Positions 27,619 to 55,116 of a stretch of 59,707 bases of DNA are shown here, piece after piece. Location of the stretch: IMG/VR virus record IMGVR_UViG_3300045988_124470, positions 1 to 59,707 of that record, one strand, 5' to 3'. Source of the DNA: a virus. The number at the start of each line of letters is the position of its first letter. Within the stretch, counting starts at the first letter, position 1. The notes below the pieces were generated by a model, which worked only from the letters and a program-made list of their open reading frames with translations, was not told the DNA's origin and searched no databases. The position numbers and the translations under genes are program-made.

Positions 27619-27651
27619 TATCTTTGCAAAAGCATGTCAAGTGGCATGCTT
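27619..27651 (+). promoter_or_regulatory. Late promoter/leader-hairpin module copy D (upstream of terS)
   Basis: -7 box TAtcTTTG (27619-27626); hairpin aagcatg-TCAAGTGG-catgctt (27630-27651); ATG 20 nt downstream. Confidence 0.6.
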
Positions 27652-27670
27652 CCCATACTGACGAAAAGAC

Positions 27671-28219
27671 ATGAAAAAACTTACAATCAAACAAGAGAAT
27701 TTTTGCAACTACTACATCGAAAGCGGTAATACTTCCGATGCCTATCGTCGTGCCTATTCGTGCGAGAAGATGAAAGATAAACAAGTGTGGGAAGAATCTT
27801 GTAAGTTGTTGTCCAACCCAAAGGTAGCCCAAAGGGTCAAAGAGTTGCAGGAGGAACAAAAAAACAAATCGGATATAACTAAAGAACGCATTCTGCAAGA
27901 ATTGTCCGGTATAGCTTTCTCATCCATTGCCAGCATGCACAACACATGGATAGAGCGTAAAGAATTTGATGAACTCTCTGACAAAGAGAAATCGGCAATA
28001 AAAAGTATATCTACCAAAATATTGAAAAAAAATATTGGAACAAGTGACGCCCCGGAAATTGTAGATGTCGAATATGTGAAGATAGAACTTTATGACAAGA
28101 TAAAGGCTATTGAGCGTATATGTAAAATGCTTGGGTTTGATGAACCTACCGAAATAGAGATGAATACCAGCAAACCCATAAGCGTTGAGGAAGCAAAAAA
28201 ACTGATAGAAAAGTTATGA
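27671..28219 (+). CDS. terS: Terminase small subunit
   Basis: LTIKQENFCNYYIESGNTSDAYRRAY is the Terminase_2-type N-terminus; overlaps terL by 4 nt. Confidence 0.8.
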   Translation: MKKLTIKQENFCNYYIESGNTSDAYRRAYSCEKMKDKQVWEESCKLLSNPKVAQRVKELQEEQKNKSDITKERILQELSGIAFSSIASMHNTWIERKEFDELSDKEKSAIKSISTKILKKNIGTSDAPEIVDVEYVKIELYDKIKAIERICKMLGFDEPTEIEMNTSKPISVEEAKKLIEKL

Positions 28220-30096
28220 TGGATGGTGTACGGTATCTACAAGCATTCTGCATGTCTGGTGTCCTTAACTATACAAAATTGCTTTTCAAAAGCAAAACGG
28301 GACGCAGGTTTGTGGTGAGCAGGCATCACAAACGTATATGCAATGCACTGGATGATGTCATTTCCGGAAAAATCCGAAAGCTGATAATCAATATTGCACC
28401 ACGTTATGGGAAGACGGAGCTGGCTGTAAAAAACTTCATATCTTACGGGCTGGCGCTCAATCCTTCTTCCAAATTCATCCACCTTTCATACTCTGACGAT
28501 TTAGCCCATGATAATTCAGAAGAGATAAGGGACATCGTTAAATCGGAAGAGTATCAGCGGCTATTTCCGTATGTTCAGATAAAGCGAGGTACGGATAGTA
28601 AGAAGAAATGGAACACCACTGCTGGCGGTGGTGTATATGCCGTATCAACAGGCGGGCAGATAACGGGGTTTGGTGCCGGAGAGGTAGACGATATAGATGA
28701 TAAGGAAATAGGGGCGGAAATAGACAGCATATCAAAAGAAGCAAGATTTGCCGGTGCTATTGTGATAGATGACCCAATCAAACCGGAAGACGCTCTATCT
28801 GACGTAAAGAGGGAGAAAATCAACCAGCGGTTTGAAACGACCATACGTAACCGTGTAAACAGCAGGAACACACCTATTATTATCATCATGCAACGGCTGC
28901 ATGAAAACGACTTGTGCGGTTATCTTATGAAGACAGAACCCGGCGAATGGACTGTCCTCTCACTGCCTGCCATAGAGAATGAAGCGGATGGGAAGGAAGT
29001 ACCTCTATGGGATTTCAAGCATACGCTGGATGAATTGCACCACCTTAATAAAATAAACCCTTTTACCTTTGAGACGCAATACATGCAAAATCCCACCCCG
29101 ATGGTGGGACTTATGTATGGCGTATTCAAAACTTATAAGGAAATACCATACACCAACCGGGCTATCCGGAAGAACTACACCGATACCGCTGATACAGGCA
29201 TCGACAAGCTATGTTCCATAGATTATATAGATACAGAAATCGGCAACTTCATTTTAAATGTTCTATATACGGATGCTCCTATGGAAGTTACGGAGCCGAA
29301 AGTCGCAACCATGCTTGCCAAGGACGGAATAACCGTGGCTAATATCGAAAGCAATAACGGCGGGCGTGGCTTTGCCCGAAATGTGGAGAAGCAATCACGT
29401 ATCATTGGAAATGATGAAACAGAAATAAAATGGTTCCACCAATCCGGAAATAAAGAGGTGAGAATTTTCACCCGCTCTGCCGAAGTGATGAACCTCACAT
29501 ATATGCCTGAAGGCTGGGAAACTCTTTTCCCGGAATTTCATGCGGAGATAAAGTCTTTCAGGAAGTTCGGGAAGAATGCACATGATGACGGTGCGGATGC
29601 TCTTACCGGAACTGTTGAAAAGCGTGGGGAATTTGAATATGACAGTTATGATGACGGTGCGGCAGTTCTCTCCGGTATTCCGATTGTAGAAATACATCCA
29701 CTGCTTAATGGAAGATTCGTCCATGCTAAAGCGTACATAGTGGATGGGGCGGTATATGTGGACGACGCATACATAGGAGAGCCGCTTCCTATCGAAGCGG
29801 TTAAGACATTTGTATCAGGTGCAGATGTGAATATTGAGGTTTCGCAGGCGATGCTTCATTATGTACGCGATTATAGAGCAGAAATAGGAGATGTCTGGGC
29901 AAGGCAGGAGAATGCAGGGAAAATAGCTTATATTGAAGCTTTTCGAGGATTAGTCCGAGGATTTAAATTTAAGAGAGACAATAAGATGTCATTGTTTATG
30001 CGTAATCTAATGGATTACGATGGCAAGGACGTATATGAAGCAATGTATGTATTGTGCTGTATAGCGGATAGGATAAAAAGAAAATTAAAAAAGTAA
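28216..30096 (+). CDS. terL: Terminase large subunit
   Basis: Walker A APRYGKTE, Walker B IVIDDP, nuclease-domain motifs DTADTG / HDDGADALT; 626 aa with a ~130-aa C-terminal extension. Confidence 0.85.
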   Translation: MMDGVRYLQAFCMSGVLNYTKLLFKSKTGRRFVVSRHHKRICNALDDVISGKIRKLIINIAPRYGKTELAVKNFISYGLALNPSSKFIHLSYSDDLAHDNSEEIRDIVKSEEYQRLFPYVQIKRGTDSKKKWNTTAGGGVYAVSTGGQITGFGAGEVDDIDDKEIGAEIDSISKEARFAGAIVIDDPIKPEDALSDVKREKINQRFETTIRNRVNSRNTPIIIIMQRLHENDLCGYLMKTEPGEWTVLSLPAIENEADGKEVPLWDFKHTLDELHHLNKINPFTFETQYMQNPTPMVGLMYGVFKTYKEIPYTNRAIRKNYTDTADTGIDKLCSIDYIDTEIGNFILNVLYTDAPMEVTEPKVATMLAKDGITVANIESNNGGRGFARNVEKQSRIIGNDETEIKWFHQSGNKEVRIFTRSAEVMNLTYMPEGWETLFPEFHAEIKSFRKFGKNAHDDGADALTGTVEKRGEFEYDSYDDGAAVLSGIPIVEIHPLLNGRFVHAKAYIVDGAVYVDDAYIGEPLPIEAVKTFVSGADVNIEVSQAMLHYVRDYRAEIGDVWARQENAGKIAYIEAFRGLVRGFKFKRDNKMSLFMRNLMDYDGKDVYEAMYVLCCIADRIKRKLKK

Positions 30097-30115
30097 TCGA
30101 AAAAAGATTGTTTGC

Positions 30116-30187
30116 TATTTGGAATTAGTCTAAATAATATGTATATTTGCACCCGTAGGGTCACTACAAGCGTGTGAAGTTGCACGC
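30116..30187 (+). promoter_or_regulatory. Late promoter/leader-hairpin module copy A (upstream of portal)
   Basis: -33 TTTG (30118-30121), -7 TAtaTTTG (30142-30149), hairpin gcgtg-TGAAGTTG-cacgc (30170-30187). The 35-nt promoter core is near-identical to 44153-44187. Confidence 0.65.
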
Positions 30188-30261
30188 AACCGTATAAATG
30201 GACTAAAACACTAAATATATGGGAGTGGCCGCATTCATTTGCTGTCACTCCTGCTTTGTAT

Positions 30262-31626
30262 ATGGGCATATTTACTAAAATTTGGAAGCCGAAAAATAGA
30301 AAATCTATTCCGATGTATGACAGTGTAAATCGGGTAGAAAAGGATGCAGCAGGAAACTACTGGTTTTTATCTGATTTATTTGGTGCTCGTTCCAGATGGA
30401 AAGTATATTATGACATGACTAATAATTCAGATAAAGCTGAGGCGCTTATTTCTTGCACTCCTTTTTTTACTGTAGTTGATAAAATCGGTTCCATGATGTC
30501 CCGTGGTGTTCCTTACGTTGTTGATAAAGACGGGAATGAAAAAAGAACTTATGCTGATATACGAAATATTCTCCACAATCCCAATCCGTTGCAAACATTT
30601 TCTTCGTTTGTAAAGCAGGCTGAGATATGCCTTAAAGTTTTCGGATATTGTCCTATTGTTCTTGTGAGGGCTACAGAAAAAAGCGTTCCCAAAGCGATGT
30701 GGATAGTTCCCCCTGAAATATTCCATATAGAGGGAACGGGTAAGGTGTTTCGTCAGTATGAATTGAAGGATATTGTATCGAGTACATATATTGACTGCAA
30801 CGGACGGCGGATGGAATTGGAAGATTATGAATACATAATAGTATATGACAGCAATATCCTTGTTGAGAGCGGCAGGAGTGCAGATGTTAAATTCGAGTCT
30901 GTTTCAGACAGTTTGTCGCAGCCTATATCCAACTGGATAGCTTCCATGTCGGCAAGCTATACATTACTTGTAAACGGCGGCCCTAAAGGCGTACTCTATA
31001 ACGACTACACAGACCAAATGGGTAATGTTGCTCTTTCTTCAGAAGATGAAAAGGAGATAAAAGACAGTTTTAAACGCAATTACGGATTGGTGAACAAGGA
31101 ATACCCCATTTTGGTGACACGTTATAAATTAGGATGGCTTCCCCTTGATTTTGATGCCGATAAATTAAAGCTTCATGAAGAAGATAAAAGATGTACGGAT
31201 AAGATTGCCAATGCAATGGGAATAAATGCCAACCTGTTCACAGATGCCAAATATGATAATCTTGAAAGCGCCGGAAAAAAGGCTTATCAAGATGTGATTA
31301 TTCCAGATAGCCGAAAGATAGCAGAATGTCTTTCAAAAGCTATATGCCCAGAGGGTGTTTTTATTAAGATTGATTTTGCAGACGTTGAATGTCTTCAAAC
31401 TAACAAAGAGGCAGAAGCAAATACATTGGTTAAAGTGGCCGATGCCATGCAAAGGTTATTGGACAAGTCTTTGATAACGCATGATGAAGCCCGTGTAGAA
31501 ATCGCAAGATATATAGACATTGACCCGGATAATCCCAAGGGAGATTTTGACAACAATACAGCAAACAGCGTATCTTCTGAGAACAACATCAATAATAGCA
31601 AAGAGAATGGAAAAAAAGATGAATAA
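30262..31626 (+). CDS. Portal protein (ATG at 30262; the track start 30256 is TTG)
   Basis: About 454 aa, immediately after terL and before the prohead protease. Confidence 0.7.
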   Translation: MGIFTKIWKPKNRKSIPMYDSVNRVEKDAAGNYWFLSDLFGARSRWKVYYDMTNNSDKAEALISCTPFFTVVDKIGSMMSRGVPYVVDKDGNEKRTYADIRNILHNPNPLQTFSSFVKQAEICLKVFGYCPIVLVRATEKSVPKAMWIVPPEIFHIEGTGKVFRQYELKDIVSSTYIDCNGRRMELEDYEYIIVYDSNILVESGRSADVKFESVSDSLSQPISNWIASMSASYTLLVNGGPKGVLYNDYTDQMGNVALSSEDEKEIKDSFKRNYGLVNKEYPILVTRYKLGWLPLDFDADKLKLHEEDKRCTDKIANAMGINANLFTDAKYDNLESAGKKAYQDVIIPDSRKIAECLSKAICPEGVFIKIDFADVECLQTNKEAEANTLVKVADAMQRLLDKSLITHDEARVEIARYIDIDPDNPKGDFDNNTANSVSSENNINNSKENGKKDE

Positions 31627-32365
31627 ATACAAAGATAAAATGGGGATGCAATATAAATTATTCTCCATTAACTCAAAAGATGTCCAATATAGCCCCGAAA
31701 GCCGGACTATCAGCGGGTATGCTGCGATATTCGGAAATAAGGACAAGGCTCACGATATTTTATTGAAGGGTTGCTTCTCAAAAAGCATTAATGAAAGAGG
31801 CCCACAAAGCCAAGCAAACGACAAAATTATACTTCTTTGGATGCACGATCTGTCAGAGCCTTTGGGATTTATTACTGAATTAAAGGAAGATGATAGAGGG
31901 CTTTATTTTGAGGCGCGCATTGATGAGATTGAACTTGGAGATAGAGCCATAAAGCAACTTGAATCAGGCACGCTTAATCAATTCTCTATTGGCTATGAGT
32001 ATGTATGGGAAAAATGTGAATGGGATTATGAAAAAGAGGCTTTGATTGTTAGAGAGGTTAAGCTATATGAAATATCAGTAGTGTCAATTGGTTGCAATGG
32101 AGAAACCGAGTATCTGGGGTTAAAGTCAATTGAAGACTATGAAAATTCTTATAAGGATTTAAGCAGTGAAATTTCCTCGTTATGCAAAAATATGAGCATG
32201 TCTAAGCAACTGCGTTTGCAAAAAATTATAGCCAAAGCAATGTCACTTGCATCTTTTAGGCCGGACAGTGTTATACCAGTTCCACCCAAAGAGAAGGAAG
32301 CCGGCAGTAATGGCAAAACGGAAGAAAAATCATTATGTAATTTATTAAAACTAAAATCGGTATGA
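31619..32365 (+). CDS. HK97-family prohead protease (start trimmed to Met at 31619)
   Basis: ISGYAAIFGNKDKAHDILLKGCF...LLWMHD...PLG...EDDRGLYFEA...FSIGY...LYEISVVSIG matches the S78/U35 protease pattern. Confidence 0.8.
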   Translation: MNKYKDKMGMQYKLFSINSKDVQYSPESRTISGYAAIFGNKDKAHDILLKGCFSKSINERGPQSQANDKIILLWMHDLSEPLGFITELKEDDRGLYFEARIDEIELGDRAIKQLESGTLNQFSIGYEYVWEKCEWDYEKEALIVREVKLYEISVVSIGCNGETEYLGLKSIEDYENSYKDLSSEISSLCKNMSMSKQLRLQKIIAKAMSLASFRPDSVIPVPPKEKEAGSNGKTEEKSLCNLLKLKSV

Positions 32366-33705
32366 AATTAGGATTTTTAGAACTTATGGACACATCCGGT
32401 CTGTCTGAAGAAAACAAAAAGTTTTTTGAATCTTTGGACGAAAAAATGGGAGAAGCTTTTGAAAAACAAGTGAAAGGCTATCTTTCGGATGAAGTTAAAC
32501 TGGAAGATTTGCGCAAATCCATAAAGGATGCCGCTGATTCCATAAACGACATCAAGGAAAAGGATTTTGCCGGCATTGACAAAAAGACTTTTGAGGAGAA
32601 GGTTAATGAACTGGAGAATGCCATTTTACGTGTAAAGGCTTCTACTGAAGTGGGTAAAAACGGAGAGGTAAAGATTAAATCCGTTTATGAGCAGCTACAC
32701 GAACAGCTCAAGGAGTATATTACCGCAGACAAGAAAGGTATTATGTCCCTCGATTTGAAATCGGCTTGCCAGGCGGCTCCTGGCAATAAGTTGGGATTAA
32801 ATCTTGTGTTGGAAAAGAAAGATGCCGCGACTATTACTTCCGGGTCTCTTGCTCCGCATTACGGGATTGAGGTTGACCCAAATTTATCAGTCAATCCGAG
32901 AGCGCAGACTGTCATTCGGAAATATGCAAATGTATCGAGCACCAACAATCGGGCTTTGGTTTATGCGGAATACACAAGCAAGGATGGGGATGCTGCATGG
33001 GTTCCTGAAGGTGGATTAAAGCCCCTTATGGATGCGACATTGACGGAAAAAACGGTGACGGCCGCCAAAGTTGCAATTGCCGCCAAGTTTACAGAAGAAA
33101 CCTTGTCCGACTTCCCAAGTTTCGTCAATGAAGTTGAAACGGAAATGATAAACAAACTTGGTATAAAAGAAGAACAGGGTATTTTGTCAGGCAATGGTTC
33201 CAGTGGGGAAATAAAAGGAGTTGCTTCAGATATGCCGGCATTTTCTCTTTCCACTTTCTACGTTGAAAGACCGAACATGTTTGATGCTCTTGTGGCAGCT
33301 TATTCGCAAATTGTATCTACCAGCGAAATGGCATATCGTCCCAACCTTGTATTGATGAACCCATTGGATTATGCGGCTATGCAGTTAGCTAAGGATGCTA
33401 ATGGGCAGTATCTGCGCCCGTTCCGTTATGGAGATGAGCTTATTCAAGGATTACGTGTCGAAACGACTACGGCGATAGAACAAGGTGATTTTATCATGGG
33501 AGATTTCTCATATTTGAATATTCGCGACTTGTGGGCGTTGTCTATTACTATGGGATGGGAAAATGACGATTTCCGCAAAAACATTGTTACTGTAATCGCA
33601 GAGAAGAGATTAATGTGTTATATCAAATCGCAGTATAAAACAGCGTTTGTAAAGGACACATTTGCTACTGTAATAGAAGGTATCACTCAAGGAGTAGGAG
33701 GATAA
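32362..33705 (+). CDS. Major capsid protein (HK97-like, with N-terminal coiled-coil delta/scaffold region)
   Basis: 447 aa following the protease; LVLMNPLDYAAMQLAKDANGQYL is typical of HK97-fold capsids. Confidence 0.8.
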   Translation: MKLGFLELMDTSGLSEENKKFFESLDEKMGEAFEKQVKGYLSDEVKLEDLRKSIKDAADSINDIKEKDFAGIDKKTFEEKVNELENAILRVKASTEVGKNGEVKIKSVYEQLHEQLKEYITADKKGIMSLDLKSACQAAPGNKLGLNLVLEKKDAATITSGSLAPHYGIEVDPNLSVNPRAQTVIRKYANVSSTNNRALVYAEYTSKDGDAAWVPEGGLKPLMDATLTEKTVTAAKVAIAAKFTEETLSDFPSFVNEVETEMINKLGIKEEQGILSGNGSSGEIKGVASDMPAFSLSTFYVERPNMFDALVAAYSQIVSTSEMAYRPNLVLMNPLDYAAMQLAKDANGQYLRPFRYGDELIQGLRVETTTAIEQGDFIMGDFSYLNIRDLWALSITMGWENDDFRKNIVTVIAEKRLMCYIKSQYKTAFVKDTFATVIEGITQGVGG

Positions 33706-33708
33706 AAA

Positions 33709-35959: not shown

Positions 35960-35976
35960 CTGTGTTGTGCATTCAA

Positions 35977-36000
35977 TTAGGGGCGTTTATTCGCCCCTAA
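35977..36000 (+). terminator. Hairpin terminator candidate
   Basis: 9-bp stem ttaggggcg/cgcccctaa, loop tttatt. Confidence 0.55.
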
Positions 36001-36012
36001 ATTATATCTGTT

Positions 36013-36992: not shown

Positions 36993-36996
36993 ATAA

Positions 36997-37026
36997 AAGC
37001 CCTAAGCGGGATGGTTTAGGGCTTTA
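36997..37026. terminator. Bidirectional rho-independent terminator
   Basis: 10-bp stem aaagccctaa/ttagggcttt flanked by A/T runs, between convergent genes. Confidence 0.75.
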
Positions 37027-37299
37027 TTTTTTACCATAGTGATACCTCATAGAGAGCACATAAACTGTGATTATTTCATCATTAACTGAATAGATAATGC
37101 GATGCTCCGAATTTATGCGCCGAGACCATTTGCCGGACAAGTCATATTTCAGAGATTCTGGTTTGCCTATTCCGGTATAAGGGTGTTTGGCTATATCTTC
37201 AAGCAGTGACAATATTTTATTTATTATAGCCTTATTACCGCTTAGTACAAAATATTGGTATTCTTCTTTTGCTTGTGCGGAAAGTGTTATTTTGTACAT
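37024..37299 (-). CDS. yoeB: YoeB/Txe-family type II toxin (mRNA interferase)
   Basis: HPYTGIGKPESLKYDLSGKWSRRINSEHRIIYSV...RYHY is the YoeB signature. Confidence 0.9.
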   Translation of the reverse strand: MYKITLSAQAKEEYQYFVLSGNKAIINKILSLLEDIAKHPYTGIGKPESLKYDLSGKWSRRINSEHRIIYSVNDEIITVYVLSMRYHYGKK

Positions 37300-37577
37300 A
37301 TAGCCCGATTTAAAAAGTCCGACATACTTTCTCCCTCATGTTGAGAAACGTAATTCCCATTCTTAATATCTTCTTCCCCTTTTCTGATAGCTTCCATCGT
37401 TGCCGGAGATTTCATTATATATTCAGTTTCTTTAATGGAGTTGTATTCATCTAAAGATATGACGACAACGCTTTCATTGCCGGCACGGTGCACCAGCAAC
37501 GGCTCACTGTCATTTATCACACCATCAAGATAGTGCTTAAGGTTATTCCTTAGCTCTGAATAGTTAGCTGTTCTCAT
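37287..37577 (-). CDS. yefM: YefM/Phd-family antitoxin
   Basis: MRTANYSELRNNLKHYLDGVINDSEPLLVHR...VVVISLDEYNSIKETEYI; overlaps yoeB by 13 nt. Confidence 0.9.
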   Translation of the reverse strand: MRTANYSELRNNLKHYLDGVINDSEPLLVHRAGNESVVVISLDEYNSIKETEYIMKSPATMEAIRKGEEDIKNGNYVSQHEGESMSDFLNRAICTK

Positions 37578-37656: not shown

Positions 37657-37714
37657 AATTTAGACAAATTCTAAATAATTTTATATCTTTGCATTATCAT
37701 GTAATGTTGCATGA
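37657..37714 (+). promoter_or_regulatory. Late promoter/leader-hairpin module copy C (upstream of tape measure)
   Basis: -33-like TTTA (37659-62), -7 TAtcTTTG (37684-91), hairpin tcatg-TAATGTTG-catga (37697-37714); ATG 19 nt downstream. Confidence 0.6.
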
Positions 37715-37732: not shown

Positions 37733-40700
37733 ATGGCAAACGAATTTGTAATTACCGACGTAGTAAGGAAAGAAGCCTTCGACCAATTAGACAAGCTTAT
37801 CCTTAAGTACAATGAGGCAAAAGGTACTTATGTAGCATTTACTAAAGAGCTGGCGAAATCATACAGTATTCCGGTTTCTAATTATGACGACTTGACTAAT
37901 AAGGCGAGATTATTTGAAGAAACTCAAAAAAAGCTAATCACAACAGAGAAGGAACTTAACAACATTCAAAATGAATATAAGACGCTCTTAAGAAATATTG
38001 CAGAGGAAACTAAGAAAGCAACCAAAGAAGCTTTAGAGCAAGCAAGAGCTAACAATTTGAATGCGCAGGCAGAATTAAAAGCTGCCAAAGCTGAAACCGA
38101 GAGGTTGAAGCAACAAAAAATGCTCAATCAAGAAAAGAGGAAGCTTAAAATTACCACGCAGGAAGCTATCGCTTTGACGAATAAAGAAGTTCATTCTATT
38201 AATGAGGCAAAAGAACAAAATAAACTACTTCGTATTGCGGTTTCCCAAGTTACCGATGCGGAAGATAAAGATAATAAAATACGCCAACAACTTAACAATC
38301 AGATAGTCAAGAATACAGAATATATAAGAAGAAATTCCGATTCATATACTAAACAAAAGATGGCTATTGGGGCGTATAGGAACGAGATAAAAGCTGCAAT
38401 AGTTGAATTACAAAACGGAAATAACGCATTTAAAAATTTAGGAATTGTCGCAAAAGGATATGGAAATATTTTAAGATCAAATGTCGCAGGCGGAATCAAT
38501 GAAATTAGAGTTGGCGTTGGTTCTATGATAAAAGGGATGATTGGAGCGCAAGCTGTTATTGGTGGGTTTCAAAAGTTAATAGGCTTATTTAAATCAGGCG
38601 TGCAATCTATTATTGATTTTGAAGCAGCAAATAGTAAATTGGCGGCAATTTTGGGAACCACATCTAAAGATATAAAAGATTTAACGGCCGACGCTCAACG
38701 ATTAGGCGCAGCAACCAAATATACAGCAGCACAGGCTACTGATTTACAAATAGAATTGGCTAAATTGGGATTCTCCAAAACTGAAATCTTACAATCAACA
38801 GAATATGTTTTAAAATTCGCCCAAGCAACCGGTTCTGAATTGCCGGAAGCAGCTGCTCTTGCTGGTGCTTCCCTTAGAATGTTTAATGCTGACACCTCAG
38901 AAACAGAAAGGTATGTATCAGCGATGGCAGTTGCTACAACCAAAAGTGCATTATCGTTTTCTTATTTGCAGACAGCAATGCCAATTGTAGGCCCGGTGGC
39001 AAAGGCTTTTAATTTTCAGATAGAAGACACTTTGGCATTATTAGGGAAGTTGGCCGACTCTGGATTTGATGCGTCTATGGCTGCAACAGCTTTAAGGAAT
39101 ATATTTCTTAATCTCGCTGATAGTAATGGTAAATTGGCGAAATCTTTAGGTGGTTCAGTTAAAACGTTGCCTGAACTGGTAGAAGGATTAAAGAAGTTGA
39201 AAGAGCAAGGTGTAGATTTGAATACTACACTTGAATTGACGGACAAAAGAAGTGTTGCCCAATTCAACACATTGCTTACCAATATTGATGCGCTTATTCC
39301 TTTAAGAGAGCAGATAACCGGGGTAAATAAGGAATTGGGTGATATGGCTGATGAAATGGGTAACAATGTACAAGGGGCAATACTCGGATTGTCTTCCGCA
39401 TGGGAAGCTTTTATGCTCTCTTTTATGGGTTCTGCGGGGCCGGCTAAGGATGTGATAGATTTCTTTACAAGAGGTATTAGAAATATCGCCAACCAATTAA
39501 AAGACGCCAATCAACTGCAAGATGATTATAACAACAGAGCTGTTGCTATGGCTCAAAATGAAATGGCTAAATCAGGTATTCTTGAAAAGAACATCAATAA
39601 CATGCAAAACTTGTACCAAGAATATATCAACTCTGGTATAACAGCTGACGAAGCCGCAAAAAAGGCAAAAGAAGAATATATTGAAACCTTGAAATCAAGA
39701 CTTGAATTTGAAAACACTGACTATCAATTAGCTATTACCAAACGCAATAAATTGGAAGACGAATTAAAAAATAGAGGATTTTTCACTATTCTAACTTCAT
39801 GGAAAAGAACAAACAGCGTTATCAAAGATGAGATTGATATTGCGACTAAAGCCGCCGCTGGGAAAAAAGCAATATCATCTATTACAGAATCATTGATAAA
39901 TCAACTTAATAAAATTGATTTAATGGGGAGTGATATATCTACAACCGGAAAGAGTGGAGTGCTAACAGATAAAGAAAAGAAAGCGTTAGAGAAAGCTGCT
40001 AAAGAACGGCTTCGCATCCGTGAAGCCTTACAACAATCTGAACTGGATTTAATGGATGAAGGGTTGGAGAAAGAACTTGCTAAAATATCATTAGATTATA
40101 GTAAGCGGATAGCGGCAATCAAAGGCAATTCTAAAGAAGAGCAAAAAACAAGAGAGAACCTCGCAGAAGCAATGCAAAAAGCATTAGAAGAGAAACAGAT
40201 TTCTTACGGCCTTAACAGGGAGAAATCTCAAATTGAAACAAAATTAGACATTGTAAAAAAAGGAAGCGAAGAAGAATATAGATTAAGATTAAAATTACTT
40301 GATAACGAAAGGGAACAAGCCATAAATGCAGCCGTAAGAAATGGAGAAGATGTTTTTCTTGTCGATGAAAAATACAAAAGAAAACAATTAGATTTAGAAG
40401 AAAAATATGCTGCTGAAAAGAACAAGAAAATACAAGAATCTTATTCTTCTCAATCCGTGATAATAAACGCTGAAATGTCTAAGGAGTTGGATGGAGTTGC
40501 TATGCAATACTCTCAAGGATTGATGCAAAAAGAAGCTTATGAAAGAAAGAAACAGGAGATAACAGAAAAATACGCCATCAAACAAGCACGATTGGCAGTT
40601 GATTTAGCCAAAGAGCAACTAAACACGCCCGGTCTATCGGAAGAGGATAGGTTAAAATTGAAGGAAAAGATAGCGGAAGCGGAAATAGCTCTCGCGGAAA

Positions 40701-41584
40701 AGGTCAGGGATGCAGAAGAAAATGCCGTTAATAAATCCGCTGAAGTAACTAAAAAGAAAATGGATAAAATAGCAGAGACCATTCAGGCCATATCTGATTT
40801 GTTAGGTGGATTTGCTGATTTGGGAACTGCCATTTTTGAAAGAAAAATAGAAGAAATAGAAGCTGAACAAGATGCAAACGACGAAGCTTATGATAGAGAA
40901 ATTGAAAGAATAGAAAAGCTTGAGGAGAACGGAGCCATTTCTACGGAAGAGGCGGAAGCCCGTAAACGTGCGGCAGAAGATAAAACAAAACAAAAAGAAG
41001 AAGAAATTGCGAAAAAGAAAGCTGCGTTACAAGAAAAGCAGGCAAAATTTGATAAAGCCAATAATATAATACAAACAATAATGGCTACATCTTTAGCCAT
41101 TATGAAAGCATGGACTAATCCGTTTACAGCTCCTGGCATAATCCCATTGATAATCGCACAAGGAGCAATCAGTCTTGCAACTATCATAGCCCAGCCTATC
41201 CCCAAATACGCTAAAGGAACAAAAGACCATCCGGGCGGTTTAGCCATTGTCGGCGACGGTGGCAAGAAAGAAGGCATTGTAACTGATAACGGTCTTTTTA
41301 TCACCCCCGACAAGCCGACATTGGTAGACCTTCCAGCACATGCGCAGGTGATACCTGATTTGTCATATATCTATGACCGCAGAGGTCTTGCGTCTGATTA
41401 CGGACTATTGGAGCAAAGACTAAAGAATATGAGAGAAGAAGGGGTTGTAGTCAATGTAAGCAACGATTACAGCCGACTTGAAAAGAAGATGGAAAGCAAT
41501 ACCAAACAATTGCAAAGTATCGGAAGAATGATGAAAAAAGCCAATCAACGTGCGGATTATAATTGGATTTCAAATAGAGTATAA
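37733..41584 (+). CDS. Tail tape measure protein
   Basis: 1283 aa with long coiled-coil stretches, Gly/Ala-rich hydrophobic segments and a TMP-core-like region (AATKYTAAQATDLQIELAKLGFS). Confidence 0.9.
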   Translation: MANEFVITDVVRKEAFDQLDKLILKYNEAKGTYVAFTKELAKSYSIPVSNYDDLTNKARLFEETQKKLITTEKELNNIQNEYKTLLRNIAEETKKATKEALEQARANNLNAQAELKAAKAETERLKQQKMLNQEKRKLKITTQEAIALTNKEVHSINEAKEQNKLLRIAVSQVTDAEDKDNKIRQQLNNQIVKNTEYIRRNSDSYTKQKMAIGAYRNEIKAAIVELQNGNNAFKNLGIVAKGYGNILRSNVAGGINEIRVGVGSMIKGMIGAQAVIGGFQKLIGLFKSGVQSIIDFEAANSKLAAILGTTSKDIKDLTADAQRLGAATKYTAAQATDLQIELAKLGFSKTEILQSTEYVLKFAQATGSELPEAAALAGASLRMFNADTSETERYVSAMAVATTKSALSFSYLQTAMPIVGPVAKAFNFQIEDTLALLGKLADSGFDASMAATALRNIFLNLADSNGKLAKSLGGSVKTLPELVEGLKKLKEQGVDLNTTLELTDKRSVAQFNTLLTNIDALIPLREQITGVNKELGDMADEMGNNVQGAILGLSSAWEAFMLSFMGSAGPAKDVIDFFTRGIRNIANQLKDANQLQDDYNNRAVAMAQNEMAKSGILEKNINNMQNLYQEYINSGITADEAAKKAKEEYIETLKSRLEFENTDYQLAITKRNKLEDELKNRGFFTILTSWKRTNSVIKDEIDIATKAAAGKKAISSITESLINQLNKIDLMGSDISTTGKSGVLTDKEKKALEKAAKERLRIREALQQSELDLMDEGLEKELAKISLDYSKRIAAIKGNSKEEQKTRENLAEAMQKALEEKQISYGLNREKSQIETKLDIVKKGSEEEYRLRLKLLDNEREQAINAAVRNGEDVFLVDEKYKRKQLDLEEKYAAEKNKKIQESYSSQSVIINAEMSKELDGVAMQYSQGLMQKEAYERKKQEITEKYAIKQARLAVDLAKEQLNTPGLSEEDRLKLKEKIAEAEIALAEKVRDAEENAVNKSAEVTKKKMDKIAETIQAISDLLGGFADLGTAIFERKIEEIEAEQDANDEAYDREIERIEKLEENGAISTEEAEARKRAAEDKTKQKEEEIAKKKAALQEKQAKFDKANNIIQTIMATSLAIMKAWTNPFTAPGIIPLIIAQGAISLATIIAQPIPKYAKGTKDHPGGLAIVGDGGKKEGIVTDNGLFITPDKPTLVDLPAHAQVIPDLSYIYDRRGLASDYGLLEQRLKNMREEGVVVNVSNDYSRLEKKMESNTKQLQSIGRMMKKANQRADYNWISNRV

Positions 41585-44152: not shown

Positions 44153-44211
44153 TATTTGGAATTAGTCTAAATAGTACGTATATTTGCGCAAGATGTGTGA
44201 AGTTACACGTC
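44153..44211 (+). promoter_or_regulatory. Late promoter/leader-hairpin module copy B
   Basis: -33 TTTG (44155-58), -7 TAtaTTTG (44179-86), hairpin gatgtg-TGAAGTTA-cacgtc (44192-44211). The leader gacgaaaagacATG is identical to the terS leader. Confidence 0.65.
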
Positions 44212-44233
44212 ACTGTAAAAAGGACGAAAAGAC

Positions 44234-45112
44234 ATGGTAAAAGTTGGTGATGTTTGCCCTCTTTTTTTCTCACCTATAAAATATGAGTTTGGGCTTGATA
44301 TGGACTATATTCAGAAGTTTCACTCTTCTGACAAAATCCATATACAGGTATTTGCTAATGCTTCAGAGGAAGTATCAGCGAGCCTAAACGACCTTGCAAC
44401 AGGCAATTCCACATCAATACCACTTTCTACATATAATCACAATGGTAACGTAGTGATGTATTACACCATTCTCCGAGACTTGGAAGATGCCATATATACA
44501 GTAACAATCAATGGAAGTACCTCAGAACCTTTTATTGTATGTTCCTCTGACACTCTATTAGAGGAAACAGTACTTATTCGTTATTCTCATAAAAGCAACA
44601 ATTCCTCTTTTGATAATATATTCTGGATTGATGATATTCAGCAGATATTTAATTTTCGTGTAGAAGCTGGTTTTAAGCCGAACGGATATTCGCCTCAGAT
44701 AGATAACGAGCAATACCGTAATCAAATGCAGGAAATAGAAGAATTATATGCAGTGCCCTATGATGTGTATAATCTTACGATAGGGAATTCGAGCGGTGTT
44801 CCTTATTGGTTCGCAAAACACATAAACCGTATCCTATGCCTTTCTATGGTGGAAATTGATGGAACAAGATATGTCCGTTCGGAAAGTTCTGTGCCTGAAA
44901 TGACGCAAGTTATTGAAGATAGCCAATTGTTCCAAATAAGCATGGCTCTTGAATTACAGAATAACGACATTGCGGGTATCGGCGGCTCTCCTGAAGCGGG
45001 TTCTTCCGCCTCTTTCCCTGCATTTCTGATAGACCATGCCAAAGATGGGGAAGTATTGCAATACGATAAAGGAAAGGCGGCATTCACTAATACAGATAAG
45101 CTTGGGGTATGA
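44234..45112 (+). CDS. Tail/baseplate structural protein (by position)
   Basis: 292 aa; 4-nt overlap with the next gene. Confidence 0.5.
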   Translation: MVKVGDVCPLFFSPIKYEFGLDMDYIQKFHSSDKIHIQVFANASEEVSASLNDLATGNSTSIPLSTYNHNGNVVMYYTILRDLEDAIYTVTINGSTSEPFIVCSSDTLLEETVLIRYSHKSNNSSFDNIFWIDDIQQIFNFRVEAGFKPNGYSPQIDNEQYRNQMQEIEELYAVPYDVYNLTIGNSSGVPYWFAKHINRILCLSMVEIDGTRYVRSESSVPEMTQVIEDSQLFQISMALELQNNDIAGIGGSPEAGSSASFPAFLIDHAKDGEVLQYDKGKAAFTNTDKLGV

Positions 45113-47385
45113 AAAAAAGACTTAGTAAAATATTGTGGTTTGGTGACGCACTTGATGAAAACCATCAGGCGATACCCCCTGCTTTATCTCCGAGTGACGA
45201 AGAGCATCTGCAAGGGTTAAATCTTGGGGAAATATATATCTGTGTTGCAGATGCCGACCCTGCATTGTTTATCAGAACTTCTGCCGACCGGATTGTCTAC
45301 TTTAAGGCTCTTGATATAGAGGCTCTATCAAAGTTCTTTATAAGAAAGGACAGGCCGGACGAAGCAGGATTTTTAATAAAGTTCTTAGGTGGATTATTTT
45401 CTGACTACATCCAATCAATGAACTTTTCTTCCGGTGCGCTCGGTGAGGGGTTTGTCATCAAAGTAGACAGCAAGACGGGTAAATCCTACATTGAAGTGGA
45501 CGAACTCTTTGTCCGCATAAAAGCCATGTTCTCCGAATTGGAGATAAAGAAGCTTTCCTATGCAGGCGGAAACTACATGTTCACCGCTGCCGGAATGAAA
45601 TGCGGCAAAGTTGAGGAACACGAGGATTTTTGGCGTTGCTATTTGTTGGTTGACGATGGTGAAACGGCTATTGAAAACCCGTTCAATGAAGGCGACCAGG
45701 TACGGTTTCAAGACTTCAATATCAAGCCGGGTGTCTACGAGAATGTATCCAACCGTTACTATTGGCGCCTATGCGTAGGTGTCGGCGAGGATTATATAGA
45801 CCTTAGCAAAACGGACTGTGACGCCAACAGTGACACACCGCAAGAAGGCGACAGTCTTGTACAGCTCGGCAACCGCACAGACAAGAAGCGTCAGAATGCA
45901 ATAACATTGTCTGTGTATGGTGATGATGCGCCAAGTATCCATCAATACGCCGGAATAGATTCCTATTCAATGGCGGGCAAGGAAGTGACGGTTATCAGTC
46001 CGCAAGGTAACAAGTTCATGGGTGACTTTATTTTGAAGACCGGCATAAATATTATGACCCAGTTCAAGATATTGGAAGACCTTATTTATTCGGAAATCTC
46101 CAAAGTGCTTGACGAAATACAGGCAGAGGATAACTACCTGTACAACTCGGCATTCGCATCCAATACGAACGGTTGGGAAGCGAAGAACGACATTCACTTT
46201 TTCACCGTAAACGGAAAATTCTTATTGGTGAATGGGGAGTTCTATTCCCGTAAGGATGCTATGGCGGCAGTAGTACGATATGGAGACAGAAACGTGCTTC
46301 GTATCCTTTCTTCCGGAATAAAACAGTTAAATGCTGATTTAGCCAATAAGCCGACCTATGAGGAAGGAGAAGAACCGAAGAAGTTCTTTATCTCTTTCCG
46401 GTATAAGGTAGTTACAGCCGGAACACTTACGATAGGCTTTCCCGGTCAGAACCTGCATTTCACCGAACAACTCGAACCGGGTGAAGAATATACAATGAAG
46501 GAGTATTCCGGCACATGGGACGGAACTGGTGATTTTGAGTTGAAGTTTACAGGGGACATATACATACATTCGTTGGCGTTGACCCACAACGCCTATGAGG
46601 ACTTGTACACAAAGTTAAGTTCAGAGATAGAGCAGACCGCAGAAAGCATTAGACTGGAAGTGAAGGAGCTTTCGGAGAGCAATAATCAAAAGTTCTCACA
46701 AATAGAACAGCGGGCTGATAGCATTGCATTATCTGTTGAAGAAATTGGAGACAGCGTAAAGGAGTTAGGTATTAAGATTGACGGAATAAATGATGAAATT
46801 TCATTATTCGTTAAAAAGGACGACATCATTAATTCTATAAACGTCAGTGATGAAGGAATAGTTATAAACGCCAATAAAATCAATTTAGAAGCGTACACTC
46901 CCAAAGATGGGGTTATCGCTGCTATAAATTTCGGAGATGAAGGAATTAAGATTAATGCAGAAAAAATAGATATATCCGGAGCTGTTACATTTGACTCCTT
47001 GAATAGCACCTTACAAAACACTATTAATGAGAAGGTTTCATCGTCCTCTCTTGGCGGACTTGCATACGAAGATGCAGTTGAAGCATCTCAATTAGGAAGT
47101 ACTATCATTGTTGGCGGGTATTTAAACTCTAATTTCATAAAGGTAGACACTTTAGAAGCCGGGTTAACTGATGGGAGAGGTAGGGTGAAAATAGATTATG
47201 AAGGATTTCGTATAAACACGGATTTAGGTGCTGCAATTGAAATGGGAACTGAAACGGTATCCAATACTTATGGTGGGTATATAATAATAAGAGAGTTCGT
47301 AAGACTTACCTCTCCTTATTGCAAGCTATCAGCAGACGGTTTGGTTTTCTACAACTCTGATGGTTCTGTAGATAGATATTATTAA
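45109..47385 (+). CDS. Tail fibre / host-specificity protein
   Basis: 758 aa with a coiled-coil region and repeated beta-helix-like units (DEGIVINANKINLEA / DEGIKINAEKIDISGA). Confidence 0.55.
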   Translation: MKKRLSKILWFGDALDENHQAIPPALSPSDEEHLQGLNLGEIYICVADADPALFIRTSADRIVYFKALDIEALSKFFIRKDRPDEAGFLIKFLGGLFSDYIQSMNFSSGALGEGFVIKVDSKTGKSYIEVDELFVRIKAMFSELEIKKLSYAGGNYMFTAAGMKCGKVEEHEDFWRCYLLVDDGETAIENPFNEGDQVRFQDFNIKPGVYENVSNRYYWRLCVGVGEDYIDLSKTDCDANSDTPQEGDSLVQLGNRTDKKRQNAITLSVYGDDAPSIHQYAGIDSYSMAGKEVTVISPQGNKFMGDFILKTGINIMTQFKILEDLIYSEISKVLDEIQAEDNYLYNSAFASNTNGWEAKNDIHFFTVNGKFLLVNGEFYSRKDAMAAVVRYGDRNVLRILSSGIKQLNADLANKPTYEEGEEPKKFFISFRYKVVTAGTLTIGFPGQNLHFTEQLEPGEEYTMKEYSGTWDGTGDFELKFTGDIYIHSLALTHNAYEDLYTKLSSEIEQTAESIRLEVKELSESNNQKFSQIEQRADSIALSVEEIGDSVKELGIKIDGINDEISLFVKKDDIINSINVSDEGIVINANKINLEAYTPKDGVIAAINFGDEGIKINAEKIDISGAVTFDSLNSTLQNTINEKVSSSSLGGLAYEDAVEASQLGSTIIVGGYLNSNFIKVDTLEAGLTDGRGRVKIDYEGFRINTDLGAAIEMGTETVSNTYGGYIIIREFVRLTSPYCKLSADGLVFYNSDGSVDRYY

Positions 47386-47405
47386 ACACTTTAACTTTAC
47401 AATAT

Positions 47406-47980: not shown

Positions 47981-47988
47981 TTTGCGTT

Positions 47989-50199: not shown

Positions 50200-50209
50200 A
50201 ACAACAATT

Positions 50210-51089: not shown

Positions 51090-51355
51090 AACCCGTCCTA
51101 TTCTCACGAATAAGGCGGGGACTGGCAGACTTTCAATCAACAATAAGCATATATATGTATGAGTAGAAACATTGTAAAATCTGCCCTATAAACAAACAAC
51201 GTGAAAAAACCTTATCTATGTTATCACAACAATGCAAGGAATCAATCTAAACGTTTATCATTACCAGATAATGCTTATTGTCGGGTTATCGTTTATTGAA
51301 CATTTATAAAACGCATCACAAAGATAAGAATAATTGTAATACAAACAATGGAAAG

Positions 51356-51814
51356 ATGAAAGGCAACATTATTACACAAAGCATACCTGGGGGATTTTCG
51401 GTAATAGCGAGTAGCTTTATTATGCAGTCATTGGAACACATGATACCGTGGCTGATAGTGACATTTTCAGTCGTAGTGTGTGACTTGGCATTTGGAGTGA
51501 GGAAAAGCCTGTTGATGGGCGAGGAAGTGCGCTTTTCCAGTGCTATCCGCAGGACTATGGGTAAGATGGTGACTTACTTCGCTTTTGTATGTATGGTGGT
51601 GATGATAAACATCGCTTCCGGAAGCAAGTGGAATATTGATGTGTATTCATGCCTGTTTGTCTGCTTTATAGAGTTCTGCTCTATTATAAGTAACATTCTA
51701 AAGCCCAAAGGATATAATTTCAACTTACTAAAAGCATTAGGACTATTCGGTAAAAAAGTACTCGATGTTGAGAAAGAAGATATGAGTGAAATAATAACTA
51801 AAGATAAGGAGTAA
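51356..51814 (+). CDS. Holin (phage_holin_4-like; start trimmed to Met at 51356)
   Basis: Multiple TM helices; VVCDLAFGVRKS...FIEFCSIISNILKPKG fits the holin-4 pattern (D..tG ... E..Si.eN....G); lies upstream of the endolysin. Confidence 0.65.
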   Translation: MKGNIITQSIPGGFSVIASSFIMQSLEHMIPWLIVTFSVVVCDLAFGVRKSLLMGEEVRFSSAIRRTMGKMVTYFAFVCMVVMINIASGSKWNIDVYSCLFVCFIEFCSIISNILKPKGYNFNLLKALGLFGKKVLDVEKEDMSEIITKDKE

Positions 51815-51818
51815 CAAA

Positions 51819-51998: not shown

Positions 51999-51999
51999 T

Positions 52000-52404: not shown

Positions 52405-52416
52405 AAAGTAAACATC

Positions 52417-52707: not shown

Positions 52708-52710
52708 CCT

Positions 52711-54096: not shown

Positions 54097-54557
54097 AAAG
54101 ACTATTGTATGTAATATTGCTTGCTCTGGCGGTGTGTTCTTGTAGAACGAGGACTGTTTATATGCCGGTTGAGACAAAGGTTTTTGACAGCATAATCTAC
54201 CATGACACTACATTTCAAGAGAAGCTGATACCGTACAAGGACAGCGTGTCTGTAGTCGATACAACATCATTCCTTCGTAATCCGTATGCTTATAGCTATG
54301 CTTCATGGAGTAACGGTACATTGAACCATTCATTGGGCATCTACCCTCATGCAACGGTAACAGTCAAGATACCGTACTTCATCGAAAGGATAAGAAGGAT
54401 TGAAGTGCCAAAGCCTTATCCCGTAGAAAAAGAGTTGTCATGGTGGGAAAAGTTTAAAATCAATTACGGCGGCGCCAGTCTTTCGATAAATCTAACCTGT
54501 ATTTTGTTCGTGATAGCTTGGCTCGCCATAAAGATAAGAAAGAAATTAACGATGTAG
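54093..54557 (+). CDS. Lipoprotein with C-terminal TM helix (unimolecular-spanin-like architecture)
   Basis: MKRLLYVILLALAVCSC (lipobox) and C-terminal LTCILFVIAWLAIKIRKK; the ATG at 54093 forms an ATGA overlap with the upstream stop. Confidence 0.5.
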   Translation: MKRLLYVILLALAVCSCRTRTVYMPVETKVFDSIIYHDTTFQEKLIPYKDSVSVVDTTSFLRNPYAYSYASWSNGTLNHSLGIYPHATVTVKIPYFIERIRRIEVPKPYPVEKELSWWEKFKINYGGASLSINLTCILFVIAWLAIKIRKKLTM

Positions 54558-54584
54558 AAGTCGGCTTATCGCTGGCGCTCTTTC

Positions 54585-54612
54585 GGGGGCTTAGAGTAAA
54601 AAGAAAGCCCCC
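54585..54612 (+). terminator. Hairpin terminator candidate
   Basis: 8-bp stem gggggctt/aagccccc; no clear T-run. Confidence 0.4.
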
Positions 54613-54649
54613 AACGTTTCACGTTAATATTGCCACATAAAAACATGAT

Positions 54650-54707
54650 AAGCATAAGACAATGCACGTTGGAGGCTTTAATATCTTCAACGCATTGTCT
54701 TATGCTT
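54650..54707. promoter_or_regulatory. Long imperfect inverted repeat (16 + 7 bp stem)
   Basis: aagcataagacaatgc(54650-65)..gttggag..cttcaac..gcattgtcttatgctt(54692-707). Confidence 0.5.
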
Positions 54708-54769
54708 TGTTCATTGAATCTCATGTTCTATGTGGCAGGGCAAAGATAAATATAAAATTTAGAAAAACT

Positions 54770-55063
54770 ATGTGTAAGTCAGAAATCTTTGCCGAAACAA
54801 TCAATCTCGTCTCGCAGGAGACGGAAATTCCAGTCAATCGAATACTATCCTCGGATAAGGATACGGAGACCGTAGACGCCCGCTATCTGCTTGTCCGGCT
54901 GTTGGTTGAAAGGGGCATGTATCCGTCTCAAATAGCCTTACAAATCCATAAGACCAAGCGTGCGATAAACTACATGATTTCCAATTTCCAGGAGCGTATG
55001 GAAGGTGGGAAAATGTTGAGAATATATTGGGAAAATATAAAGAAATCGTTGGGAAACAACTGA
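54770..55063 (+). CDS. DnaA-domain-IV-like HTH protein (start trimmed to Met at 54770)
   Basis: ILSSDKDTETVDARYLLVRLLVERGMYPSQIALQIHKTKRAINYMISNF resembles the Bac_DnaA_C HTH pattern. Confidence 0.5.
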   Translation: MCKSEIFAETINLVSQETEIPVNRILSSDKDTETVDARYLLVRLLVERGMYPSQIALQIHKTKRAINYMISNFQERMEGGKMLRIYWENIKKSLGNN

Positions 55064-55086
55064 TTTCATGGCAGATTACGTATTTA

Positions 55087-55116
55087 TACTTTTGTGATGC
55101 GGTTGATTTTGACCGT
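55087..55116 (+). promoter_or_regulatory. Late promoter/leader-hairpin module copy E
   Basis: -7 TActTTTG (55087-94), hairpin gcggt-TGATTTTG-accgt (55099-55116); ATG 21 nt downstream. Confidence 0.5.

Follow-up and report, generated by a model that had tools for sequence, protein, structure and literature searches.

The phage and its hairpin element

The DNA considered here, referred to as the window, is the whole of the 59,707-nucleotide (nt) IMG/VR virus record IMGVR_UViG_3300045988_124470 (positions 1 to 59,707). It is a temperate siphovirus of a human-gut Bacteroidales host, with more than 150 close relatives among IMG/VR contigs, and the portals in three human-faecal GenBank records are 81%, 65% and 43% identical to its own. 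Our subject is a short hairpin that recurs in the leaders of its genes, generally just downstream of a promoter. This is a real, conserved and structured leader element, which confirms what an earlier first-pass annotation of the window had described and extends it to further copies and other phages.

On the + strand the integrase gene (25873-27081) is followed by terS (27671-28219), terL (28216-30096), the portal gene (30256-31626, an open reading frame (ORF) with a TTG start), the prohead protease (31520-32365), the capsid (32362-33705), the tape measure (37733-41584), the tail genes after 41584 and the holin (51278-51814). The early replication and recombination operon runs from about 20339 to 185 on the − strand. 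The most likely start of the portal is the ATG at 30262, two codons into the TTG ORF, which is conserved in the related locus L001 (L-numbers label the loci that were compared); the first-pass annotation had assumed another start.

Six copies in the window

Five hairpins had been reported, here called D, A, C, B and E, and all five were found at the reported positions, each downstream of a TAnnTTTG −7 box on the + strand. The −7 box of copy D, TATCTTTG, was read directly at 27619-27626, upstream of terS, and the hairpin, aagcatg-TCAAGTGG-catgctt, occupies 27630-27651; its minimum-energy fold is a stem of 9 base pairs (bp) with an AAGU tetraloop. A leader box, GACGAAAAGAC (27660-27670), abuts the terS ATG at 27671. 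The same box stands 5' of the gene that starts at 44234 and of terS in L001, L074 and L075, with a variant, GAACGAAAAGAC, at the L164:6950 gene. Copy C lies upstream of the tape measure gene, with its −7 box, again TATCTTTG, at 37684-37691 and its hairpin, tcatg-TAATGTTG-catga, at 37697-37714. The promoter of copy B (44155-44186) has a −33 TTTG at 44155-44158, a 20-nt spacer and a −7 box, TATATTTG, at 44179-44186; the hairpin, gatgtg-TGAAGTTA-cacgtc (44192-44211), contains one G·U pair, and a leader box, GGACGAAAAGAC (44222-44233), abuts the ATG at 44234. Copy E has its −7 box, TACTTTTG, at 55087-55094 and its hairpin, tgcggt-TGATTTTG-accgta, at 55098-55117 (core 55099-55116), upstream of the ATG at 55137.

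Copy A is built on a longer plan. Its promoter (30118-30149) has a −33 TTTG at 30118-30121, a 20-nt spacer that contains TCTAAATAAT, and the −7 box TATATTTG at 30142-30149. The hairpin, gcgtg-TGAAGTTG-cacgc (30170-30187), is followed by AACC. Between it and the ATG at 30262 is a second, stronger and terminator-like hairpin, GGAGTGGC...GTCACTCC, with the T-rich tail TGCTTTGTAT (30222-30261). The leader folds at −40.2 kcal/mol (z −3.5), and the second hairpin itself (30222-30251) is conserved in L001. The first bases transcribed from promoter A (30150-30156; TTTG-CACCCG) resemble those of the Bacteroidales rRNA promoters L439-L444 (TTTG-CAYCCGCTTTCG), and the phage may copy the start region of a strong promoter from rRNA promoters.

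A sixth copy, F, is new and was detected with a 16-mer consensus. It lies on the − strand, where the hairpin tccgtg-TAAAGGAG-cacgga (23314-23333) stands upstream of a T5orf172/MUG113 gene (22747-23286), followed by a leader box, GGACGTGAAGAC (23293-23304), that resembles the B and D leader. Immediately upstream of the hairpin is a terminator-like hairpin with a T run (23337-23380; leader fold −37.6 kcal/mol, z −3.7). On the same strand, 5' of this terminator-like hairpin, are a promoter, TATATTTG (23444..23437), and an 11-codon mini-ORF, MKIRINQRIKI (23416..23381); promoter, mini-ORF and hairpin (23381-23444, −) may form a leader-peptide attenuator.

The distance from −7 box to hairpin is 3 nt in D, 5 in C, 5 in B and 4 in E, near the 3-5 nt first reported, and the distance from hairpin to ATG, reported as 19-23 nt, comes close to that range at 19, 18, 22 and 20 nt respectively (19 for E if its stem is extended). 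Copy A is exceptional, lying 20 nt past its box and 74 nt before the probable portal ATG. The 35-nt promoter cores of A and B (30116-30150 and 44153-44187) are identical at 33 of 35 positions and the leader GACGAAAAGACATG is common to B and D, both as first described; copies D, C, E and F have no promoter similarity to A or B. The promoter at 24266-24273, cited earlier as lacking the hairpin, indeed has no hairpin feature. A restriction to late genes was also suggested and does not strictly hold, since copy F precedes a gene of the early/lysogeny region and at least one promoter of the late region (36733) has no hairpin.

One further hairpin with a variant loop, ctggaag-TGAAGGAG-ctttcgg, lies at 46654-46675 (+), inside a tail gene of 758 amino acids (aa) at 45109-47385. 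Relatives keep similar hairpins (ggaag-TAAAGGAG-ctttc), and the hairpin could be a coincidence or an internal copy of the element.

An independent model and a core scan

Hairpins with at least 5 bp and an 8-nt loop are common in the window, with 549 on the + strand and 488 on the − strand, or about one per 115 nt, so pairing alone proves nothing. A covariance search had been proposed in the first-pass annotation. For it we built a covariance model, R2, in which every copy used came from a phage family other than that of the window, and searched both strands of the window with the filters off. The five best matches were copy A (30.7 bits, E 5e-5), copy C (20.7 bits, E 0.015), copy F (20.2 bits, E 0.021), copy E (20.1 bits, E 0.021) and copy B (19.5 bits, E 0.031). 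An unrelated match ranked sixth (14.4 bits, E 0.6) and copy D eighth (13.5 bits, E about 1). Four of the five top matches fall within 25 nt downstream of a −7 box, a space that makes up 1.5% of the window. Copy D owes its marginal score to an unusual loop, TCAAGTGG. The orthologous position, at terS of L001, L074 and L075, has a canonical hairpin, gcgta-TGATGTTG-tacgt, with the same GACGAAAAGACATG leader, and because these orthologues are canonical D is counted as a diverged member.

A second approach used the exact 14-nt core GTGTGAAGTTGCAC and left both outer stem positions free, so that pairing was not selected. In IMG/VR, 84 of the 118 rows returned were loci already found by a scan anchored on TTTG, and 22 of the 25 distinct contexts among them were judged promoter-associated. 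The outer stem positions are paired in all 22 of these (gc/gc, tt/aa, tc/ga, ac/gt, ta/ta and others). Among the 34 rows of the same scan judged random, both outer positions are paired in 4, about 12%. As a background control we used core matches in bacterial genomes, which are almost all due to chance and cannot show whether host genes use the motif; 15 of the 120 among those listed have both outer positions paired.

Conservation and anatomy

Relatives that kept the promoters and lost the pairing would have spoken against the element; what is found is that relatives keep every site, with compensatory stem changes. At site A the window stem gcgtg/cacgc is gcgta/tacgc in relatives, and at site D gcatg/catgc is likewise replaced by gcgta/tacgc. 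The site C stem tcatg/catga becomes ccatg/catgg, and a minority have ccatg/catga with the outer pair lost. At site B a pair that is U·G in the window is U-A or C-G in relatives, and the hairpin is kept in all 80 loci from L083 to L162. The site E hairpin is also kept, and homologues of copy F occur in L203, L073 and L164 (at 6950). In more distant phages the element stands 5' of the portal gene, with the stem tccgtg/cacgga in L163 and atggtg/caccat in L164 and L166, where the portal was identified by homology to that of the window. The matches in relatives are all co-oriented with the downstream gene, save three weak palindromic antisense echoes. A B-type cassette of promoter, hairpin, leader and gene homologue is found inverted in L002, beside the tape-measure promoter, and the hairpin is inverted along with it.

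Across 44 distinct copies and five stem pairs, the pair is formed in 218 of 220 cells, a count that is not independent as the copies were partly selected for pairing, and up to six pair types occur per position. The covariation score of these copies exceeds that of all 500 shuffles and of all slid controls. The stem of 5-7 bp is free in sequence but keeps its pairing. The loop is UGAWGUUG or the variant UGAAGGAG, closed by a U·G or U-A pair. These two loops belong to one element, because the variant replaces the other at an orthologous site: the ortholog of the B-type gene in L193 has the loop TGAAGGAG on another stem. A pair between loop positions 1 and 8 is present throughout (U·G, U-A or C-G); the selection pattern (T or C at 1, G or A at 8) nearly forces it, and it carries no independent weight. 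In 35 of the 44 copies positions 2 and 7 are paired as well, including changes from G·U to C-G in D and to A-U in C, and the true loop may be of only 4-6 nt, perhaps AWGU, as in the predicted folds of D and B. The 3' flank of the stem is usually AAC, and a (G)GAC box follows 11-13 nt past the stem in D, A, C, B, F and many relatives.

Taken singly the hairpin folds are modestly stable; C is not the minimum-energy fold on its own, and the flanks of D, B and E are unstructured. The antisense strand scores much lower. The G·U pairs, this low antisense score, the co-orientation with genes and the covariation together indicate a folded transcript, an RNA hairpin, rather than a duplex DNA site.

Distribution across phage families

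Outside the family of the window the core GTGTGAAGTTGCAC is found beside −7 boxes in at least five other phage groups, and the element spans several phage families in two classes of Bacteroidota, usually with two to four motif copies per related genome. One group (L177, L248, L238, L236 and L269) is distantly related to a marine Flavobacteriia phage. Within it proteins are only 30-48% identical and the exact 14-mer is kept between two conserved genes, with covarying outer pairs, while the rest of the leader has diverged beyond alignment. The Nonlabens phage P12024L, the nearest cultured relative of this group, has no motif, and the extended core was found in no cultured phage of the collection searched. 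The window has no protein in common with the other motif-bearing families except structural ones. Retention of an invariant 14-nt core at 30-48% protein identity suggests, from these comparisons, a conserved reader of the element that is possibly host-encoded.

The earlier view of a repeated module of promoter and structured leader with a covarying stem is upheld, and the constant distance to the ATG does not extend beyond this phage family. The same data bear on whether the element has a function of its own at all. Short palindromes of this size are frequent enough to arise by chance, and a promoter cassette could have been duplicated and spread, as the near identity of the A and B promoters and the moved and inverted B cassette of L002 would suggest. 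Against this, the compensatory changes, at several positions and several sites, contradict a functionless palindrome, as do the flanks paired in 22 of 22 promoter-associated core contexts against about 12% by chance. The core has also outlasted the leader around it, and copies D, C, E and F share no promoter with A or B from which they might have been copied. We consider this explanation very improbable.

Promoters, terminators and possible functions

The element follows host-type promoters, and the genes that these promoters express include those for terminase, portal, tape measure and tail. Copies with the UGAWGUUG core always lie within about 25 nt of a −7 box. Several copies begin 9-20 nt after the box, unlike D, C, B and E with their 3-5 nt. 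The copies with a UGAAGGAG loop (F, L193, L203, L073 and L164) are placed 9-25 nt before a start codon and have no recognisable promoter. The spacer sequence TCTAAATAAT is conserved in A, B and C.

The tie to promoters could mean that the element acts as DNA, either as a repressor or activator operator over the start site or as a −7-like loop that causes a sigma-dependent promoter-proximal pause, as for loading of lambda Q. The loop TGAAGTTG shares T1, T6, T7 and G8 with TAnnTTTG, the conserved spacer of A, B and C lies where lambda has its Q-binding element, and promoter followed by terminator is the lambda pR'-tR' layout. However, the half-sites differ among copies of one genome and yet stay complementary, which predicts a folded strand; G·T is a mismatch in DNA (and A·C on the other strand), and the antisense strand scores far lower. 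The A of TAnnTTTG, which corresponds to the essential −11 A, is in most loops replaced by G, the copies F and L193 have no promoter nearby, and the non-template strand of a transcription bubble could not accommodate a hairpin of 18-22 nt. A DNA-level role is therefore unlikely.

In families other than that of the window the usual order is −7 box, hairpin, an interval of 20-60 nt, a strong intrinsic terminator and a structural gene. This layout is seen in L163, L177, L181, L186, L236, L238, L241, L248, L264, L268, L269 and L276, with 13 clear contexts outside the window. The genes that follow these leaders look like prohead protease, scaffold-like protein or portal genes, to judge from their N-terminal sequences. 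Terminators were called as a stable hairpin with a T run, no more than 130 nt away and before the gene, using a fold-based detector, which replaced a perfect-stem detector that required a −33 box and found no terminators. With it 14 of 33 distinct hairpin promoters have a terminator (one of the 14 calls, in L002, is weak and inside an ORF), compared with 20 of 135 control promoters, defined by −33 and −7 boxes. In the window the operon of copy A also has internal terminators at 35977-36000 and 36996-37025.

In many families promoter, hairpin, 20-60 nt and strong terminator form a unit, sometimes repeated in tandem (L238 at 12921 and 13265; L264). The hairpin could also be the 5' module of a short RNA of about 60-110 nt, ending at the leader terminator, that acts in trans, for example as a decoy or sponge that would occupy a host RNA-binding protein, with the copies in messenger RNA (mRNA) leaders derived from it. 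An invariant core would fit a conserved host target. The interval between hairpin and terminator is not conserved between families, which leaves no seed, the units always lie directly 5' of a co-oriented structural gene, and four copies in the window have no terminator of any kind; we regard a trans-acting RNA as improbable.

The spacing in the window suggests something else again. Copies D, C, B and E start 3-5 nt past the −7 box, at or near the predicted transcription start, and end 18-22 nt before the ATG; the UGAAGGAG-loop copies stand close to start codons with no recognisable promoter, and the stretch from hairpin to ATG contains a conserved (G)GAC/ACGAAAAGAC box. In the phylum Bacteroidota translation initiates without Shine-Dalgarno pairing. 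The hairpin might then be a 5'-terminal stabiliser of the mRNA against 5'-end-dependent decay, or its loop might be bound by a protein that tunes initiation about 20 nt downstream, or both. Copy A and most other families do not fit a translational role, with 75-110 nt to the gene and a terminator-type hairpin in between, a distance at which the hairpin cannot affect initiation. A pure stabiliser has no need of a conserved loop, but it is in the loop and the inner stem that distant phages agree best. The start of several copies is 9-19 nt past the −7 box, where a single-stranded 5' end would weaken protection, and the hairpins are only modestly stable, that of C not being the minimum-energy fold. 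A role in stability or translation is possible, if doubtful, and is the chief alternative to the mechanism proposed below.

A proposed mechanism

The element is probably an undescribed signal that controls transcription of late genes. The first-pass annotation had listed an activator or antiterminator site and a stability or translation element as possible roles without choosing among them, and its list includes the explanation that we find best. We tentatively propose that the element is a hairpin recognised within the nascent leader, by which RNA polymerase becomes able to pass terminators. Control at the level of elongation is suggested because the element lies in the first tens of nucleotides of the transcript and a terminator intervenes where the gene is far; F and the other copies without a recognisable promoter are exceptions to this early position.

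In this mechanism the hairpin would be recognised, on emerging from RNA polymerase, by a trans-acting reader, which might be a protein or the polymerase itself and would be conserved and possibly host-encoded. Polymerase from that promoter would then resist the leader terminator in most families, and the same polymerase would also resist the internal terminators of long structural operons. At copies D, C, B and E the reader would be loaded where their operons start, with only A having a terminator-like hairpin in its leader in the window. The logic would be like that of lambda nut/boxB or pR'-tR', in which a strong promoter is followed by a short leader and a terminator, and a further signal permits read-through. 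A more specific and more doubtful version would have one signal, a UGAWGUUG loop followed by AAC, read by a conserved host polymerase or elongation factor, giving terminator resistance at late promoters in several mutually unrelated families of Bacteroidota phages.

A number of observations weigh against read-through control. The enrichment of terminators is indicative only, as the contexts are partly homologous. Copy A has the layout of the other families in a weaker form, its terminator call being weak with a short T run. There is no terminator before the gene at D, C, B or E, where the hairpin ends 18-22 nt from the start codon and fits translation or stability at least equally well, and at copy F the terminator is upstream of the hairpin, not downstream. 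The 5'-terminal position of the hairpin in the transcript is deduced from its spacing to the −7 box. No N-, Q-, AlpA-, NusG- or sigma-like protein and no RNA-binding domain was detected with Pfam and PHROG among approximately 75 scanned ORFs of the window, although N proteins are too divergent for this negative to exclude one. In other families no shared or conserved small gene lies beside or upstream of the element. A host-encoded reader would also not readily account for the silence of late genes in a lysogen.

Most early genes of the window have no recognisable family, so the reader may still be encoded by the phage, and small basic ORFs are present, such as 20133-20339 (−) with a pI of 10. 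A DnaA-IV-like protein (54662-55063) had been put forward as a binding partner; it has no Pfam or PHROG match and we found nothing in its support.

Some other candidates were tried and rejected. An attenuator working by alternative folds is unlikely, as no consistent complementarity between hairpin and terminator was seen in the leaders inspected by eye. A kissing partner within the phage was not found, there being no intergenic complement of the loop. In 42 full-length Bacteroidales 16S sequences neither CAACTTCA, which would allow the loop to pair with 16S rRNA, nor UGAAGUCG, which would point to mimicry of the decoding site, is present. The leader of rRNA operons (boxB-boxA-boxC) was considered as a model that the element might mimic, but no plausible copy was found upstream of 16S in 109 Bacteroidales regions, each 300 nt or longer; one rrn locus (L515) fits a loose pattern with the loop TTAAGAAA and was judged a chance match.

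Comparison with known systems

Rfam scans of the whole window, at the gathering threshold and at E up to 10, gave no match at the six sites (models of about 20 nt are hard to detect), and a full-text literature search that included the core sequence found no description of the element. By analogy the element may be nut- or ops-like in its working, while being a member of neither family, and its function remains a proposed one.

Lambda boxB is a 15-nt hairpin with a 5-bp stem and a GNRA-like pentaloop, and it varies with its N protein. The likeness to lambda N/nut lies in a short hairpin with a sequence-specific loop in nascent RNA, after a promoter and before terminators; a genome holds several copies, one for each operon, and another short box, single-stranded, is close by. 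The loop here is not a pentaloop but UGAWGUUG or UGAAGGAG, of 8 nt, or 4-6 nt if the inner pairs form. The sites head late structural operons, whereas nut serves early ones, and the core is near-invariant across distant phages. For boxA (CGCTCTTA / GCTCTTTAACAA), neither GCTCTT[TA] nor CTCTTTAA occurs in the six window leaders.

Lambda pR'/Q/tR' is similar in having a strong host-type promoter with an intrinsic terminator within about 100 nt, just 5' of structural genes, and the conserved promoter spacer of A, B and C, like the resemblance of the loop to a −7 box, is suggestive at most of pR'/Q. What Q and AlpA recognise is DNA together with a sigma-dependent pause rather than a hairpin in RNA. 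In the phages considered here each late region has several promoters, most window copies have no leader terminator, and no Q or AlpA homologue was found.

HK022 put RNA, of about 70 nt with two stem-loops, targets the conserved host polymerase. It resembles the element as a cis-acting RNA just past phage promoters, and it gives terminator resistance without a phage protein. The element differs in being a single hairpin of 18-22 nt, with no sequence similarity to put and no Rfam match. The 5' stabilisers of the E. coli ompA leader and of Bacillus phage SP82 are hairpins at or near the 5' end, which is where the hairpins of D, C, B and E would lie. Such stabilisers act through structure alone, whereas here the sequence of the loop and of its closing pairs is itself kept from family to family, and not all copies are 5'-terminal.

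In Bacteroides the UpxY-opsX system, in which a nascent-RNA pause hairpin stands 5' of a short conserved box, serves read-through of long operons; it was defined on capsule operons rather than on phages (Saba et al. 2024, PMC11685472). The RfaH-ops consensus is GGCGGTAGnnTG and the opsX non-template hairpin consensus is YGCGNAGCR (PMC11685472). As in RfaH-ops and UpxY-opsX, the leader element is invariant across many operons, which in those systems follows from a reader encoded by the host. None of the six window leaders contains the non-template hairpin of ops (GGCGGTAG) or of opsX (YGCGNAGCR). No specialised NusG paralogue was found in the window by Pfam or PHROG, and no NusG-like gene adjoins the element.

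Other features of the window

Several observations concern the surroundings of the promoters described above. A 67-aa HTH_3 (Cro/CI-type) protein is encoded at 27110-27313 (−), divergent from the terS promoter D, and its 81%-identical homologue in L163 adjoins the tail/tape-measure region; it is possible that this protein is a late-promoter regulator or an antitoxin. The + strand ORF at 27142-27474, which overlaps its gene, looks spurious. Between the tail-chaperone genes and promoter C, on the opposite strand, lies a YefM antitoxin/YoeB toxin pair (37024-37577, −) with its own promoters (37649 and 37611) and the bidirectional terminator 36996-37025. This slot is occupied in L002 by the inverted B-type cassette.

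Upstream of the integrase gene, ATGCAAAT occurs three times (two direct, one inverted) at 25814-25843, immediately after a −7 box, and from their arrangement these repeats look like an operator. The heptamer TGCAAAT was considered as a repressor operator near late promoters and rejected, as it shows no enrichment there on a window-wide count. About 180 nt upstream of the integrase gene is a weak match to the 3' end of tmRNA (25678-25695, +, in region 25526-25707; model positions 346-363, E 0.5). Many related IMG/VR contigs stop near there, and the site may be an attachment site for integration into ssrA. A strong terminator with a 13-bp stem and a T run (25019-25049, +) lies just within the predicted ORF 24978-25541, which makes the call or the start of that ORF doubtful.

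At 1748-1830 (+) a consensus promoter, TATATTTG, stands before a GA-rich hairpin (GAGGGAGGA...TCTCCTCTT) with a T-rich tail; the unit runs antisense to the distal early genes, and a small antisense RNA may be made from it. At 15545-15621 (−) there is an Rfam RT-17 RNA, barely over its gathering score at 41.5 bits, directly 5' of a 328-aa reverse transcriptase (RVT_1; 14553-15539, −); the arrangement looks like a retron or another defence module associated with a reverse transcriptase and carried on the phage. The window also encodes a protein with a CAP12/Pycsar-type TIR effector domain (20811-21575, +) and, separately, one with a Tad2-like (anti-Thoeris) and a crAss001_48 domain (5049-5765, −). 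As both a TIR effector and a Tad2-like protein are encoded, the phage carries defence as well as counter-defence cargo.

Significance for gut Bacteroidota phages

Temperate Bacteroides phages are among the most abundant viruses of the human gut. To our knowledge the literature describes neither an antiterminator nor a late activator of these phages, and the timing of late genes is essentially unknown in the phylum. A compact leader signal makes late-gene control in gut Bacteroidota phages experimentally tractable, and the hairpin can be used as a bait for its reader, as a target in reporters and as a search model for late promoters in gut viromes. In Bacteroides engineering the strongest parts for expression are phage promoters, and if the leader element changes read-through or the fate of the mRNA it would be a useful part there, or a hidden variable. 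If the reader is a host factor, it would represent a new pathway of elongation control beside UpxY/opsX. If it is the host polymerase or an elongation factor that reads the signal, this would amount to a phylum-wide processive antitermination of a new type, the phage counterpart of ops/RfaH.

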